Source: an uncultured Bacillales bacterium (GTDB taxonomy: Bacteria > Bacillota_I > Bacilli_A > RFN20 > CAG-449). Taken from it: a DNA stretch of 55,627 nt. The notes below the pieces were generated by a model, which did not search any database, was not told the DNA's origin, and saw nothing but the letters and a program-made list of their open reading frames with translations. Each line of letters begins with the position of its first letter. The first letter of the stretch is position 1. The position numbers and the translations under genes were made by a program. Positions 49,245 to 55,050 of the stretch are shown here, in pieces. Location: contig CAMEOO010000004.1 in NCBI GenBank assembly GCA_945929875.1, positions 1-55,627 on the forward strand, given 5' to 3'.

Positions 49245-50630
49245 ATGATAGAATTCAAAACAGTAAGAGAATTGTATGAATCATATAATTATGGAGATCA
49301 TCTAGTTTTAGATTCCATTAATGAAATTGAATTAGAAGGATGGATCAGAACCAATAGAGATAATGGTTCAGTTGGATTTATTGAATTAAATGATGGGACT
49401 TATTTTAAAAACTTACAATTAGTTTATGATAAGAGCCTTGAAAATTATAATGAAATTTCTCACTATTTGACTGGAAGTGCAATTGATGTTAAAGGGAAAT
49501 TTGTCCTAACTGAAAATGGAAAGCAACCTTTTGAAGTTCACGTAACTTCTATTACTCTTGAAGGAGGAGTAGATCCTTCTTATCCTCTTCAAAAAAAGAG
49601 ACATTCTTTTGAATATTTAAGAGATATAGCTTATTTAAGGCCAAGAACCAATACATTTAACGCGGTATTTAGATTAAGAAGCGTTCTTTCTATGGCTATT
49701 CACGAATTCTTTCAAGATCAAGGCTTTGTCTATGTCCATACCCCAATTTTAACTGGAATATCGTGTGAAGGGGATAATATGTTCCATTGCACGACAAATG
49801 ATAAAGATCCAAATAGCTATTTTGGGAAACCAACTTTACTATCAGGATCAGGACAAATCCACGTTGAAGCTTTTGCAATGGCTTTTAGAGATGTCTATAC
49901 TTTTGGCCCTACTTTTAGAAGCGAAAAATCAAATACAAAAACTCATGCGTCAGAATTTTGGATGATTGAACCAGAAATTGCTTTCGCGGATTTAGAAGAT
50001 GATATGCAACTTATTGAAGATTGCTTAATCTATTGCATAAAATATTGTTTTGAAAACGCTCCAGAAGAAATGGAATTCTTCGATAAGTTCATCGATAATA
50101 CTTTGAAGCAAAGATTGAACCATGTTATTAATACACCATTTAGAAGAATGGAATATACAGAAGCGATAGAAATACTTCAAAAGGCAGTTAAAGATGGTCA
50201 CCAATTTGAAAATAAGAATATCTATTGGGGATTAGATTTACAAAGTGAACACGAAAGATACATTACCGAAGAAGTAGTTAAAGGCCCTGTCTTTTTAATT
50301 AATTATCCTAAAGAGATTAAATCTTTCTATATGAGAGACAACGACGATGGGAAAACCGTTGCGGCTTGCGATTTACTGGTTCCAGGAATTGGTGAACTAG
50401 TTGGAGGATCTCAAAGAGAAGAACGTTACGATGTTCTTGAAAAGAAAATGAAAGATGCAAATATGAATGTGGAAGCATATCAATGGTATCTTGACTTAAG
50501 AAGATATGGTGGTTGTAAGCACGCCGGATTTGGAATTGGCTTTGAAAGATTACTAATGTATCTAAGTGGAATGGAAAACATCAGAGACGTAGAAGCATTC
50601 CCAAGAACATATGGTAAAATCGATTACTAG
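49245..50630 (+). CDS. asnS: Asparagine--tRNA ligase
   Basis: GWIRT, FIELNDG, YTFGPTFRSE, EFWMIEPE, DLQSEHER, WYLDLRRYG, GFERL. Confidence 0.96.
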   Translation: MIEFKTVRELYESYNYGDHLVLDSINEIELEGWIRTNRDNGSVGFIELNDGTYFKNLQLVYDKSLENYNEISHYLTGSAIDVKGKFVLTENGKQPFEVHVTSITLEGGVDPSYPLQKKRHSFEYLRDIAYLRPRTNTFNAVFRLRSVLSMAIHEFFQDQGFVYVHTPILTGISCEGDNMFHCTTNDKDPNSYFGKPTLLSGSGQIHVEAFAMAFRDVYTFGPTFRSEKSNTKTHASEFWMIEPEIAFADLEDDMQLIEDCLIYCIKYCFENAPEEMEFFDKFIDNTLKQRLNHVINTPFRRMEYTEAIEILQKAVKDGHQFENKNIYWGLDLQSEHERYITEEVVKGPVFLINYPKEIKSFYMRDNDDGKTVAACDLLVPGIGELVGGSQREERYDVLEKKMKDANMNVEAYQWYLDLRRYGGCKHAGFGIGFERLLMYLSGMENIRDVEAFPRTYGKIDY

Positions 50631-50638
50631 AGGGAAAT

Positions 50639-51718
50639 ATGGCTACAGAATTACAAGAATTTACTCAAGAAGAAGCATTAAAGAAAAAAATTAGGCAAAA
50701 GAAAAGAATTAGAGGTTGCTTAATTGTTTTAAATGCGCTTCTACTTTGCTATTTTTCTTATCTAGTGGTTGATACGATTGTTCAAAAAGTTGTTGAAAAG
50801 AAACAAGAAATCAATAATGAGATTATTCAATTAAATGGAAAATCTAGTTCTAAGAGTAAAGAGATTTACGAGAAATATATTTATAAAACTGTAGATGTTA
50901 ACGATTTTGCTACTTATGGTAAGTATCTTCTAACATCTAGTTCTAGAGTAAGTTATGATGATCTTCATTTTGAAAATGAGATTAAACTAATTAATCTTTT
51001 AGAAGATAATTTTACTGCTGAATCAAAATTTTATTTTAACTTAGGTTCAAAACTTGATGAACAGTTAGACTTATGTTCTTTAGATGTTGGCGATTATATG
51101 ATTTGCACGAGCATTACTCAAACAAAAGGGATAGCTTATCATTATACTGGTGATGACCTTTTAGAAATTACTTTATATAGTTTCCCTGATGAATTAAACC
51201 ATCGAAAAAAGATTACTATTAGAGGTAAAGAATCTTCTCCAGCACTTGTTATTTCTATTGAAGCAATTAATCTACTTCCTAAGGATAATTACGATTTTGT
51301 CGTTATTGGAAATGAAAGTGAACTACCAATCTTTAAAAATACAAACTACCAAGTTAAATATGTAACTACCTTAAAAGAAGCTTATTTAACTAATGCAAGC
51401 TATGCAATCAATCTACTTGATGAAGAAGATACTATAATTAGTTCTAATTATGTGAGTTTAGATACAAAGAAACCAGATAAAATAATCGGGTCAGCCTATG
51501 ATTCATTAGATAGTGAAAATTCTATTAGAGAATTAGGTGGATATGTATTTAATGCCGGTTATGGGGTAAAAAAAGAAGTAGGTGAAGATATTTCTAAAGC
51601 ATCACTTGAAATTAAATCGACAGGAAAAGAAGTAAGAAAAGGGAAATATACTCTTTCAGTAGGTAAAAAAATTACTTTAAAAGATATAGAAAGTTTATTA
51701 GGAGTGAAAAATGAGTAA
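50639..51718 (+). CDS. Single-TM membrane-anchored protein, possible degenerate Amidase_3-type protein
   Basis: Basic N-terminus plus one TM; LPKDNYDFVVIG and IRELGG segments; 8-bp overlap with galE. Confidence 0.7.
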   Translation: MATELQEFTQEEALKKKIRQKKRIRGCLIVLNALLLCYFSYLVVDTIVQKVVEKKQEINNEIIQLNGKSSSKSKEIYEKYIYKTVDVNDFATYGKYLLTSSSRVSYDDLHFENEIKLINLLEDNFTAESKFYFNLGSKLDEQLDLCSLDVGDYMICTSITQTKGIAYHYTGDDLLEITLYSFPDELNHRKKITIRGKESSPALVISIEAINLLPKDNYDFVVIGNESELPIFKNTNYQVKYVTTLKEAYLTNASYAINLLDEEDTIISSNYVSLDTKKPDKIIGSAYDSLDSENSIRELGGYVFNAGYGVKKEVGEDISKASLEIKSTGKEVRKGKYTLSVGKKITLKDIESLLGVKNE

Positions 51719-52697
51719 AATACTAATTGTTGGTGGAGCGGGTTATATCGGCTCAATTAATGTAAGATTATTTTTAGATAAAGGCTACGATGTCGTCGTA
51801 GTTGATAATTTAAATACAGGGCATATTTCAAGTGTTGATCAAAGAGCAAAGTTCTATAAGCTCGATATTAGAAATAAAGAAGAATTAACTAAGATTTTAA
51901 TTGAAGAAAAAATCGATGCTGTAGTTCATTTTGCTGCCCTCTCTCTAGTGGGAGTAAGCATGAAAGATCCATTATCGTATTTTGATAACAATGTCTATGG
52001 AATGATTTGCTTACTTCAAGCGATGCAAGAAGCAAAAGTGAATAAAATCGTCTTCTCTTCTAGCGCAGCCACCTATGGGGAGCAAGATCAAATGCCTTTG
52101 AATGAGGAAAGTACTACTCATCCTACTTCAGTGTATGGGGAAACAAAATTAATGATGGAAACCATCATGAAGTGGTGCGATGAATGCATTGGGATAAAAT
52201 ATGTGTCATTAAGATACTTTAATGCGGCAGGAGCAAGTAGTGATGGAACTTTAGGCGAAGATCATAATCCAGAAACCCATTTAATTCCTTTAATTCTCCA
52301 AGTACCTTTAGGTAAAAGAGATCACATCAACGTATTTGGAAATGATTATCCAACTAGAGATGGAACTTGCATCAGAGATTATATTCACGTTGAAGATTTA
52401 GCTTCTGCACACGTAAAGGCAATTGAATATCTATTAGAAGGGAATCCTTCAAATATCTTTAATTTAGGTAGTGGAGATGGACAAAGCGTCAATGAAATGA
52501 TTTCCACAAGTGAAAAAGTAGTAGGAAAAGAAATCAAAAAAGAATACGTAGAAAGAAGACCAGGAGATCCTGCAATATTAATTGCTTCAAATAAAAAAGC
52601 AAAAGAAGTGCTTCATTGGGAAAATAAAAAGAATCTCGAGGACATCATTTCTTCAGCATATAACTTTCATAAGAAAAATCCTAACGGACTAAAATAA
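51711..52697 (+). CDS. galE: UDP-glucose 4-epimerase
   Basis: GGAGYIGS, HFAA, FSSSAATYG, YGETK, LRYFN, RDYIHV. Confidence 0.96.
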   Translation: MSKILIVGGAGYIGSINVRLFLDKGYDVVVVDNLNTGHISSVDQRAKFYKLDIRNKEELTKILIEEKIDAVVHFAALSLVGVSMKDPLSYFDNNVYGMICLLQAMQEAKVNKIVFSSSAATYGEQDQMPLNEESTTHPTSVYGETKLMMETIMKWCDECIGIKYVSLRYFNAAGASSDGTLGEDHNPETHLIPLILQVPLGKRDHINVFGNDYPTRDGTCIRDYIHVEDLASAHVKAIEYLLEGNPSNIFNLGSGDGQSVNEMISTSEKVVGKEIKKEYVERRPGDPAILIASNKKAKEVLHWENKKNLEDIISSAYNFHKKNPNGLK

Positions 52698-52703
52698 ATT
52701 ATC

Positions 52704-52727
52704 AAGCACATGAAAAATGTGCTTTTT
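52704..52727 (+). terminator. Intrinsic terminator after galE
   Basis: AAGCACA-TGAAAAA-TGTGCTT followed by T's. Confidence 0.75.
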
Positions 52728-52731
52728 AAAT

Positions 52732-52757
52732 AAAAAAAACTTAAGGATAACCTTAAG
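52732..52757 (-). terminator. Intrinsic terminator of the small minus-strand transcript
   Basis: Minus strand CTTAAGG-TTAT-CCTTAAG followed by T8. Confidence 0.8.
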
Positions 52758-52800
52758 CCTTATAATACTACATAGATGTTCTAATTGGTTTTTATTCCAA

Positions 52801-52809
52801 TTAGTACAA
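52801..52809 (-). other. Minigene TTG-TAC-TAA (Met-Tyr-stop)
   Basis: Perfect SD TAAGGAGG (52815-52822), 5-nt spacer, then TTG TAC TAA. Confidence 0.4.
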
Positions 52810-52838
52810 TTTTTCCTCCTTACTCAAGTATTATTACT

Positions 52839-52895
52839 TTAAAGTGGATAGAAATAAATATAAAGATTTGATAGATATTGATATAAATATGACAA
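52839..52895 (-). CDS. Tyr-rich 18-aa peptide MSYLYQYLSNLYIYFYPL
   Basis: SD AAGAAGGAG, 5-nt spacer, TTG start; six TAT codons; below the ORF-track size cutoff. Confidence 0.5.
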   Translation of the reverse strand: MSYLYQYLSNLYIYFYPL

Positions 52896-52921
52896 GATAT
52901 CTCCTTCTTTATATTGCTAGT

Positions 52922-52950
52922 ATTATATGATAGAAAAAAATAAAATGCAA
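52922..52950 (-). promoter_or_regulatory. Near-consensus sigma-A promoter
   Basis: TTGCAT-17 nt-TATAAT on the minus strand. Confidence 0.8.
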
Positions 52951-52961
52951 CAACAATTTTT

Positions 52962-53654
52962 TTAAGTTTCTTCTTTAATGACTTTTGTTAATTCTTCATC
53001 AGGCTTTTTAATGTGAACCCCACGAGCTTGAAGTTTGGCTTCTTTTAAAGCATTTAAATCTTTCTTATAATATTCATTTGACACCTTTATTGTGCGAATG
53101 TTTCTTATAAGTAAAACGATAGAACATAAGATAAAATGGATAATCCCATAAATCATTCCAAGATCAAAAATATAAGTTAACCAAGCATCGACTTTATCAA
53201 AGTGGAAGAGAGGAACTTTACTAACTTGAGGCCATCTAGCAAGCACTGGAATAAAACCTAATAATAGTTCTCCTGTATTTTCCCAATCTAGCGCAAAAGA
53301 AAGATCTTTATTATATTTACCAATAAAGCTCAAATCAAATCCGACAACGCACATATAAATAAAAATTGTTAACATGGATAGCAAGATAAAGAAAACTGGA
53401 ATTCTCGCAGAAAAATAAAACTTTCTTCGATTCTTTTCCCATGAAACTTTTCTAAAATGCTTCTTATTTAATATCACTTCAGCATCTAGTAAATCATACA
53501 TGGAATTATCAACAAAATCGGCTTTTTTACTTAAAATGTGTTTTATTAATTTAACTAGATATCCAATTAATACTAAAAGGATGATTAGCACTAAACATAG
53601 AGCAATTAAAACTCTTTTATCAGATTCGGATAATTTTAATAGAAGATTTATCAT
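52962..53654 (-). CDS. Membrane protein of unknown function (about 3 TM)
   Basis: 230-aa ORF with hydrophobic segments; ATGA-coupled to the upstream ORF; SD GAGGAGG. Confidence 0.8.
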   Translation of the reverse strand: MINLLLKLSESDKRVLIALCLVLIILLVLIGYLVKLIKHILSKKADFVDNSMYDLLDAEVILNKKHFRKVSWEKNRRKFYFSARIPVFFILLSMLTIFIYMCVVGFDLSFIGKYNKDLSFALDWENTGELLLGFIPVLARWPQVSKVPLFHFDKVDAWLTYIFDLGMIYGIIHFILCSIVLLIRNIRTIKVSNEYYKKDLNALKEAKLQARGVHIKKPDEELTKVIKEET

Positions 53655-54082
53655 AATTCATCCTCCTCTTCTTTTGCTTCTTCTTTGTTTTCAATAAGAG
53701 AACTTTCGTTAGGTAAAGAATTTTCACTTGGATTATTGGAACTTGGAATTTGAACGGATTTTAAAACCCCATTTTGATCGGTTTGAATAATAATTGGTTG
53801 AACTAGAGTTGTAGTTGTTTTTTCAATGACTGGAGAAGGTTGAATAGCTTTTTTGACTTCATCTTCTTCATCTTGCTGTTTGATGTGAAGTTTAGCAAGC
53901 TTATCGATTTTCATTTCATCTTTCATGTCTTCGCCAGAAAAGAACATAAATATTCTTTTAAAGAACATGAAAAGGAATACGGCTAAAGAATAAACCGTAT
54001 ATACTAGGACGATGATTAATAAAATTGGAGACAAGATTAGATATAAAATCCCTTGCCCACATGTTTTTAAAAAATCAAACAT
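53651..54082 (-). CDS. Membrane-anchored protein with low-complexity C-terminus
   Basis: Long N-terminal hydrophobic stretch, Pro/Thr/Ser/Glu-rich tail; SD GAGG. Confidence 0.78.
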   Translation of the reverse strand: MFDFLKTCGQGILYLILSPILLIIVLVYTVYSLAVFLFMFFKRIFMFFSGEDMKDEMKIDKLAKLHIKQQDEEDEVKKAIQPSPVIEKTTTTLVQPIIIQTDQNGVLKSVQIPSSNNPSENSLPNESSLIENKEEAKEEEDEL

Positions 54083-54114
54083 AAAGCTTTACCTCTTTAA
54101 ATATTTTACCTATT

Positions 54115-55050
54115 TTAATTTAATTTATCAAATATAGATGAGGTAATTCTACTTTTCTTGACGATTTTTTGATAAAACACGATATAAGATGAAGTTATTA
54201 ACTGACTAATTAATGGAATTAAGAATAAGTATGGCTGATATGTTCTTTCTACGTAAGATAAAAGAATGATCATTACGATGATGGAAATAAAATATAAAGG
54301 TAATTGAATAAAAAGAATATCTTTTTTTCGATAATAAGAGAAATTATAGTATCCTAAAACTACTCCCATATAGAAAGATATACCGATTAATAAATAGCCG
54401 ATTTTATTATTAAAAAACATGAAGAAAATCGTCAATATAATCAAACTTGTTTCGATTGATAAATTTAGGATGAACTTATTTTTATTTTCATTAAACTCAT
54501 AATCGAATTTCTTTAGCTCTGAAGTAATTATTAAGTAAGATAAGGAAGCTTGAATTAAAGATAGCATAAACAAGAATAAAAAGTAAGTTTTTGAAAAGGT
54601 AGATTCACTAATTTTAATTAGTGAAGCCATCGTATTAACTAAATTGATATTGTAGATAAAATTGATTAAGTAAGTAGAACCAATTTGCATAATTAATAGC
54701 ATTAACGCGTCAATTAATATAATGTAGTAGCCTTGAATATATATTCTTATTAATTTTCCAAATATTAACCCTGAGATTAAAGAAGGGATAATGATAAAAA
54801 GAGCTAATTGGAAATCGATTATGCTGATTAAAAAAGTTGATGCTATATAGATTAATGAATATTTATAATTTACATTGACCGCAACTAGAGAAGCGCATAA
54901 AGGTAAGACTAGGCTCAATAATAAGCCGATATCTCCAATAAAGTAACTAAGAATCACTAAAACTATTGATATCGCACTTAATATAGAAACAAACGTTAGA
55001 GCATTTACTTTTTCATAACGATATTTATTTTGGTTTTTCAAAATTATCAC
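54115..55050 (-). CDS. Polytopic membrane protein (N-terminus resembles DUF2232/YybS)
   Basis: About 9-10 TM; LTFVSILSAISIVL..LVLPL..ISGLIFG pattern. Confidence 0.7.
   Translation of the reverse strand: MIILKNQNKYRYEKVNALTFVSILSAISIVLVILSYFIGDIGLLLSLVLPLCASLVAVNVNYKYSLIYIASTFLISIIDFQLALFIIIPSLISGLIFGKLIRIYIQGYYIILIDALMLLIMQIGSTYLINFIYNINLVNTMASLIKISESTFSKTYFLFLFMLSLIQASLSYLIITSELKKFDYEFNENKNKFILNLSIETSLIILTIFFMFFNNKIGYLLIGISFYMGVVLGYYNFSYYRKKDILFIQLPLYFISIIVMIILLSYVERTYQPYLFLIPLISQLITSSYIVFYQKIVKKSRITSSIFDKLN

Follow-up and report, generated by a model that had tools for sequence, protein, structure and literature searches.

The window analyzed here comprises 55,627 nt of DNA from an uncultured Bacillales bacterium (genome G000). 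A three-gene operon on its minus strand (52962-55050) encodes proteins of 311, 143, and 230 aa, which are uncharacterized membrane proteins conserved across the family; none of them belongs to an NCBIfam family, and the sole Pfam match among them, DUF2232 for the 311-aa protein, stays just under the cut-off (26.8 versus 27.8 bits). The 230-aa product, a predicted membrane protein without family match, is encoded by a gene referred to here as mem (52962..53654, minus strand), and the element that is the subject of this study always comes after mem. The next gene downstream is galE (51711-52697, plus strand; TIGR01179, 422 bits versus a cut-off of 262), which is convergent with the element and possesses a terminator hairpin of its own (52704..52724, plus strand; identified by sequence and terminator scan), separate from the element. 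The start of galE is overlapped by 8 nt by a 359-aa ORF without Pfam match (50639-51718, plus strand), which is preceded by a gene for a class II aminoacyl-tRNA synthetase (49245-50630).

A preliminary description of positions 52732-52950 had listed on the minus strand a promoter, 2 Shine-Dalgarno (SD)-TTG units, 6 TAT codons, a small hairpin, and a terminator, and all of these features are indeed present. In G000, the mem stop codon is separated by 11 nt from the -35 hexamer TTGCAT (52945..52950, minus strand), which has an A-rich tract immediately upstream and is followed, after a 17-nt spacer, by the -10 hexamer TATAAT (52922..52927, minus strand). Since TTGCAT shares just 3 of its 6 letters with the TTGACA consensus, the site was not returned by the promoter scan. 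The predicted small RNA (sRNA) body spans 52733..52921 on the minus strand, corresponding to about 185-190 nt from a putative start site, and scores 152.5 bits with a covariance model (R1) that was built from the 4 copies of the element described below.

According to the folds, the RNA is organized into consecutive hairpins. P1 (52857..52915, minus strand) is a long 5' hairpin that holds the first SD-like stretch, the first TTG, and most of a tyrosine-rich ORF, with an outer stem that is kept with covariation (helices 1-4). P2 (52812..52854, minus strand) has at its tip the small AAGTA/TACTT hairpin (AAGTA-ATAA-TACTT), and its 3' arm, GGAGGAAA, which represents the second SD, pairs with UUUCU-UCC in the G000 fold; its helix 5 comprises 17 pairs, 4 of them changed on both sides, and includes the conserved blocks ACUUUAAA and UUGAGU. 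P3 (52777..52808, minus strand), which was absent from the preliminary description, consists of CTAATTGG, an 8-nt loop, and CCAATTAG. For its 10 pairs (helix 6), 87.5% of the cells in the alignment are paired, and a Met-Tyr-stop minigene overlaps its 5' foot. P4 (52728..52761, minus strand; terminator scan) is the intrinsic terminator, with a stem at 52761-52736 that is followed by a T run; across the 4 species, 3 of the 6 pairs of this stem (helix 7) show changes on both sides.

The mem gene was found in 21 of 31 family genomes, including 13 of 14 congeners, and the sequence following it was extracted at 17 loci. The distance between mem and galE amounts to 33 nt in G012, while in 9 further genomes (G003, G004, G011, G010, G006, G044, G020, G016, and G024) an epimerase gene is reached within 40-167 nt, an interval that reads as one hairpin; the epimerase gene of G006 shares only 43% identity with the galE described here. 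Synteny with galE is broken in G005, G008, and G002. Considerably longer intervals were found in G000 (about 270 nt), G009 (about 314 nt), G013 (about 480 nt), and G001 (about 760 nt), and each of these 4 harbors a homologous element of 185-197 nt. In G001, a gene for a 152-aa GNAT acetyltransferase (L041:2446-2904, minus strand; PF13508, PF00583), which the other carriers lack, lies between the element and galE and is convergent with the element. The absence of a cis target, which had been noted for G000 on the basis of the convergent galE, thus also holds for G001. In G013, about 230 nt of additional noncoding spacer separate the mem stop codon from the element promoter, which is intact. Together, the GNAT insertion in G001 and the spacer in G013 indicate that the element travels beside mem as a unit with its own signals.

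All 4 copies share the upstream A-rich tract, the hairpins P1-P3, and the terminator hairpin P4. The -35 sequence containing TTGCAT is identical in G001 and G013 (TTGCATTTT) and is replaced by TTTACATTTT in G009 (TTTACA), while the -10 sequence is CATATAAT after a 17-nt spacer in G000, G001, and G013 and GCATACAAT (TACAAT) after an 18-nt spacer in G009. Thus, promoter hexamers and spacing have been kept across a range of 22-40% G+C, with the element itself at 22% G+C in G000 and G009 and at 37-40% in G013 and G001. The RNAs have the following blocks in common: GUAUAAAGA, UAUC, AUCUUUAUA, ACUUUAAA, UUGAGU, CU[A/G]AUUGGAA, and CCAAU.

Folded independently, the G001 and G000 RNAs yield the same 4 hairpins, with a minimum free energy of -55.5 kcal/mol for G001 (z -4.91; 0 of 200 shuffles as good) and of -40.3 kcal/mol for G000 (z -3.01; 2 of 200 shuffles as good). 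RNAalifold recovered the P1 outer stem, P2, P3, and P4, amounting to 33 pairs, 8 of which show compensatory change. Covariation was assessed by projecting the G001 fold on a structure-blind MAFFT alignment of the 4 copies. Of 211 pair cells, 86.7% were standard pairs, compared to 25-50% when the partners were slid by 1-3 columns, and 14 of 54 pairs were changed on both sides, compared to 2-5 for slid partners; neither value was reached by any of 500 shuffles, a control that ignores relatedness and was applied to 4 sequences, one of which supplied the tested structure. As G001 and G013 are close kin (89% identical), the copies represent effectively 3 lineages, and the covariation statistics are correspondingly thin. 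The frequent G-U pairs, including an invariant U-G pair, fit the minus strand only. The interpretation of the stretch as a stand-alone small transcript, already put forward in the preliminary description, is thus supported by a promoter, 4 hairpins, and a terminator that are kept in 3 further species with compensatory changes in the stems.

The element is also more conserved than its surroundings. Between lineages, the copies are 57-63% identical, while identity at fourfold-degenerate sites of mem and galE amounts to 12-36%; for the close pair G001/G013, the corresponding values are 89% and 69%. Judged from these comparisons, the RNA sequence is under purifying selection, and since it is more conserved than flanking fourfold sites, the element is no decaying relic. 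Furthermore, the tetranucleotide UAUC is enriched, with 15 occurrences in the 4 RNAs compared to 3.56 in dinucleotide shuffles (0 of 500 shuffles reached 15). In G000, 6 copies are located at RNA positions 23, 39, 45, 49, 72, and 173 (window positions 52899, 52883, 52877, 52873, 52850, and 52749). Copies near positions 40 and 50 are common to all 4 RNAs, and a copy at position 152 is found in G009, G001, and G013, but not in G000. The repeats lie on the 3' side of P1 and, in 3 of the 4 RNAs, also in the linker between P3 and P4. On the strength of this pattern, UAUC may be a recognition motif.

The distribution of the element appears to be narrow. The covariance model R1 finds its 4 source copies at 152-186 bits and revealed no further real member in the 31 family genomes; a match of 27.7 bits in G002 sits inside a 719-aa ORF and was therefore rejected as a false positive. 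Across 151 genomes of the order, 4 carriers were found, all from one genus, in a search that scored only a subset of first-look candidates, so that absence here means not found among those searched. A pattern scan of genome contigs returned 11 stretches, 3 of which score exactly like the 3 congeners and 8 of which are unrelated chance matches, while a scan of metagenome contigs returned 24 stretches with a single real one (L099), which is almost identical to G001 and therefore adds no diversity. No second copy of the element was found in the G000 genome. A 38-nt stretch elsewhere in this genome (C6:23369-23407; E 0.0037) matches the terminator portion of the element at 82% identity and is probably simply a similar terminator hairpin. 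In a single-gene tree of the mem protein, G000, G012, G009, G001, and G013 form one clade (support 99/100), 4 of whose 5 members carry the element. However, G012 is not firmly placed inside this clade, and, therefore, loss in G012 and gain after the branching of G012 are indistinguishable.

Searches against known RNA families gave no indication of a described RNA at this site. With Rfam 15 at gathering thresholds, no match was obtained anywhere in the window, and a relaxed search of a 501-nt region (E up to 10) returned 7 sub-threshold matches, the best at 14.5-23.8 bits (E of at least 2.3). These matches (snoR19, Ref84, rli38, PyrD leader, and others) are all far under the Rfam thresholds and were rejected. 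Likewise, nothing was found on the element at the G001, G013, and G009 loci with E up to 1. The possibility, raised in the preliminary description, that a known RNA such as 6S explains the sequence is thus not borne out by any family match. The genome has its own 6S RNA (RF00013) elsewhere (C3:4605-4767, 48.1 bits, above cut-off), as well as its own SRP RNA locus, which is above cut-off and is also matched, below cut-off, by the large-SRP model. A tracrRNA or other repeat-guided RNA was rejected as well, as no repeated complementary sequence was found in the genome. We therefore classify the element as a candidate for a new, narrowly distributed sRNA family, "new" referring to the comparison with Rfam 15 only.

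Contigs from 4 sequencing runs filed as RNA or possibly RNA (2 of them as animal-gut RNA libraries, the other 2 rated as probably DNA) were compared with the region 52300-53400. These contigs cover only 52306-52645, within galE, at an identity of at least 99%, which places this organism or a close relative in the samples of those runs. With regard to possible targets, exact complementarity between the RNA and its own genome extends to 15 nt at most and thus does not exceed the 15-22 nt obtained with 30 mononucleotide shuffles.

In G000, the element contains 2 potential translation units on the minus strand. The first consists of the SD AAGAAGGAG (52909-52901), a spacing of 5 nt, and a TTG at 52895 that opens an 18-codon ORF (MSYLYQYLSNLYIYFYPL-stop; 52839..52895) with 6 TAT codons at positions 3, 5, 7 and 12, 14, 16. 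The second consists of the SD TAAGGAGG (52822-52815), again a spacing of 5 nt, and the minigene TTG-TAC-TAA (52801..52809). By 2 rough measures, these features are more than expected by chance within G000. First, with a strong SD defined as AGGAG or GGAGG located 4-9 nt ahead of a start codon, 110 such units were counted on both strands of the intergenic DNA (133,579 nt by a crude definition; 0.41 per kb-strand), which corresponds to about 0.08 expected in 189 nt, where 2 are seen. Second, 2 of the 1,697 small intergenic ORFs that are 12-30 codons long reach a Tyr content of at least 30%, and an SD-like motif is found upstream of this one only.

The comparison with the orthologous copies, however, reveals no shared reading frame among ORFs of at least 5 codons. 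The Tyr-rich ORF, both SD-TTG units, and the Met-Tyr-stop minigene are restricted to G000 and absent from G009, G001, and G013, and neither the SDs nor the starts nor the Tyr codons are conserved as units in these relatives. Moreover, their sequences coincide with structural parts of the RNA: the 5' arm of P1 contains the first SD, the 3' arm of P2 makes up the second, and the conserved ACUUUAAA block of P2 supplies the stop codon of the Tyr-rich ORF. SDs and starts are mostly paired in the predicted fold, with mean unpaired probabilities of 0.27 and 0.32 (SDs) and of 0.38 and 0.40 (starts). Each mini-ORF begins with TTG 5 nt after its SD, whereas the 311 long ORFs of this genome that have a strong SD mostly begin with ATG (282, versus 16 for TTG), and their spacing, which is 5 nt in 35 cases, peaks at 7-8 nt. 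As UAUC is enriched in all 4 RNAs, the Tyr bias has a noncoding source: 3 of the 6 TAT codons are the UAU of UAUC copies, and TAT is also frequent in stems of 22% G+C. The Tyr-rich ORF and the SD-TTG units are thus probably side effects of stems and a repeated motif, although the strength of the SDs and their statistical rarity leave some probability to translation in G000.

In 3 of the 4 copies, start codons fall into the same alignment columns (columns 26-34, about 52887-52895 in the window). In the columns of the G000 TTG, G001 has ATG-TAA and G013 has TTG-TAA, while in G009 a TTG-TTA-TAA lies 3 columns upstream; a purine-rich AAAGAG/AAGAA stretch precedes all of these sites. The alignment may reflect conservation of a start-stop site, or these codons may just belong to the UGUAAUA arm at the P1 tip.

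Taken together, we consider it likely that this stretch encodes a structured sRNA of about 190 nt that has its own promoter and terminator, and that the mini-ORFs confined to G000 are most likely by-products, a status argued from the comparison of orthologs. In the proposed mechanism, a sigma-70-type promoter would drive transcription of an RNA folding into 4 consecutive hairpins, P1-P3 and the P4 terminator, in one subclade of a genus of gut Bacilli. In G000, G009, and G001, the interval from the mem stop codon to the element lacks a terminator; therefore, operon transcripts should read into the element and stop at P4, and such read-through may add to the RNA pool. We infer that the RNA would act in trans as a riboregulator. 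Since UAUC is repeated and conserved, and since the sequence of the stem arms, not only their pairing, is strongly conserved, binding at the UAUC sites is suggested, and a protein or another RNA might bind there in a multi-site decoy or multi-seed manner. In this reading, the purine-rich "SDs" are stem arms, and half of the TAT codons are the starts of UAUC copies.

The G000 mini-ORFs nevertheless allow for readings that involve translation. The RNA could be dual-function in the G000 lineage only, i.e., an sRNA from which an 18-aa Tyr-rich hydrophobic peptide is translated, perhaps with a second ribosome-loading site. While the occurrence of 2 strong SDs at 5 nt from TTG where about 0.08 are expected, the singularity of this SD-preceded Tyr-rich ORF among the small intergenic ORFs, and a frame that stays open for 18 codons at 22% G+C argue for such a peptide, the ORF and both SDs are missing from 3 of 3 orthologous copies, SDs and starts are predicted to be mostly base-paired, and both TTG (16 of 311) and the 5-nt spacing (35 of 311) are atypical for the genes of this genome. 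Furthermore, for the Bacillus dual-function sRNA SR1, both functions are described as conserved across 23 homologues (PMC3526287). A dual-function sRNA or a small-peptide gene, as considered in the preliminary description, is therefore unlikely, even in a version restricted to G000. A related and slightly less probable scenario is that a micro-gene is being born inside the conserved sRNA, where drift of the P1 and P2 stems together with expansion of UAUC may have generated 2 strong ribosome-binding sites and an 18-codon frame at the aligned start. Far less probable still, to the point of being very doubtful, is a Tyr-sensing leader peptide or attenuator, or a tRNA-sequestering minigene, either active or left as a relic of a lost operon. 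The 6 TAT codons within 18, arranged in 2 YxYxY runs, the Met-Tyr-stop minigene with its strong SD, and the downstream terminator had made this an attractive reading. However, Tyr codons, ORF, and minigene occur in 1 of 4 copies, with the SD of the minigene (TAAGGAGG) corresponding to the P2 3' arm, and the convergent galE leaves no downstream gene to be controlled in cis. P2 and P3 separate the stop codon of the ORF from the terminator, which begins about 80 nt further on, and the folds, both consensus and single-sequence, consist of 4 independent hairpins, without a predicted antiterminator that would involve the ORF and compete with the terminator; likewise, by eye, no P3-P4 alternative holding in both G000 and G001 was seen. 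A full-text literature search for Tyr-codon leader peptides and attenuation yielded, in the passages retrieved, only text on trpL and on tRNA-Tyr modification (PMC13602947). The purifying selection on the RNA speaks against a relic, so that the attenuator left behind after operon loss, which the preliminary description had envisaged, is contradicted as well.

The element might also not be an independent sRNA gene at all, but part of the mem operon, which would then end in a structured 3' UTR with a role in termination or mRNA stability. Its invariable position after mem and the lack of an intervening terminator in G000, G009, and G001 would fit this explanation. Nonetheless, hexamers, spacing, and upstream A-tract are conserved across a divergence that is saturated, and the promoter has stayed intact in G013 despite the spacer of about 230 nt after mem. 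In addition, termination alone needs no 190 nt, as other genomes end mem with a short interval, either the 40-167 nt with one hairpin found in 9 family genomes or the 33 nt found in G012. We therefore consider a 3' UTR function improbable, about on a par with the nascent micro-gene, and retain the structured-sRNA gene as the preferred interpretation.

If this interpretation is correct, the element adds an unclassified structured sRNA family to an uncultured, small-genome lineage of gut Bacilli for which hardly any regulatory RNA is known, with the repeated UAUC motif providing a testable handle. It also represents a cautionary case, in which stems and repeats of an AT-rich structured RNA mimic leader peptides and SD sites and in which the comparison of orthologs resolves the ambiguity. 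If ribosomes load at the aligned start, the RNA would be one turning dual-function, and the start (or start-stop) site might help to control the sRNA; if the ORF of G000 is translated, it would be a neat case of an ORF arising from noncoding RNA. Overall, the element is moderately interesting for RNA biologists who study gut Bacilli, while its general surprise value is low.

Several known systems resemble the element in part. With 6S RNA it shares a similar length, but in the folds its 5' end is engaged in P1 instead of pairing with the 3' end. Leader-peptide attenuators comprise a short ORF rich in the codons of one amino acid upstream of a terminator. The element likewise has a codon-rich short ORF ahead of a terminator, as in trpL (described in PMC13602947); however, its ORF is not conserved, and it has neither a downstream operon nor an alternative antiterminator. 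Similar to SR1, it is a small structured RNA holding a short SD-preceded ORF, but this ORF occurs in 1 of 4 copies, and there is no sequence relation, as the Rfam scans were empty. CsrB and RsmZ are multi-motif decoy sRNAs that expose a GGA motif in loops. The element shares with them a short motif repeated in a hairpin-rich sRNA, a likeness that is a mechanistic analogy only, since its motif is UAUC instead of GGA and is found mainly in a linker and in stem arms, not in loops. With regard to its position, sRNAs with internal promoters at the 3' ends of genes exist. 3'-UTR-derived sRNAs are the subject of PMC9731577. Among known systems, trans-encoded sRNA genes of Firmicutes are a further comparison: the element differs from them in having no Rfam 15 family match and in having been found in 4 species of one genus only, yet it resembles them in its length of about 190 nt, its own promoter by the upstream stop codon, its stacked hairpins, its Rho-independent terminator, and the lack of a conserved ORF.
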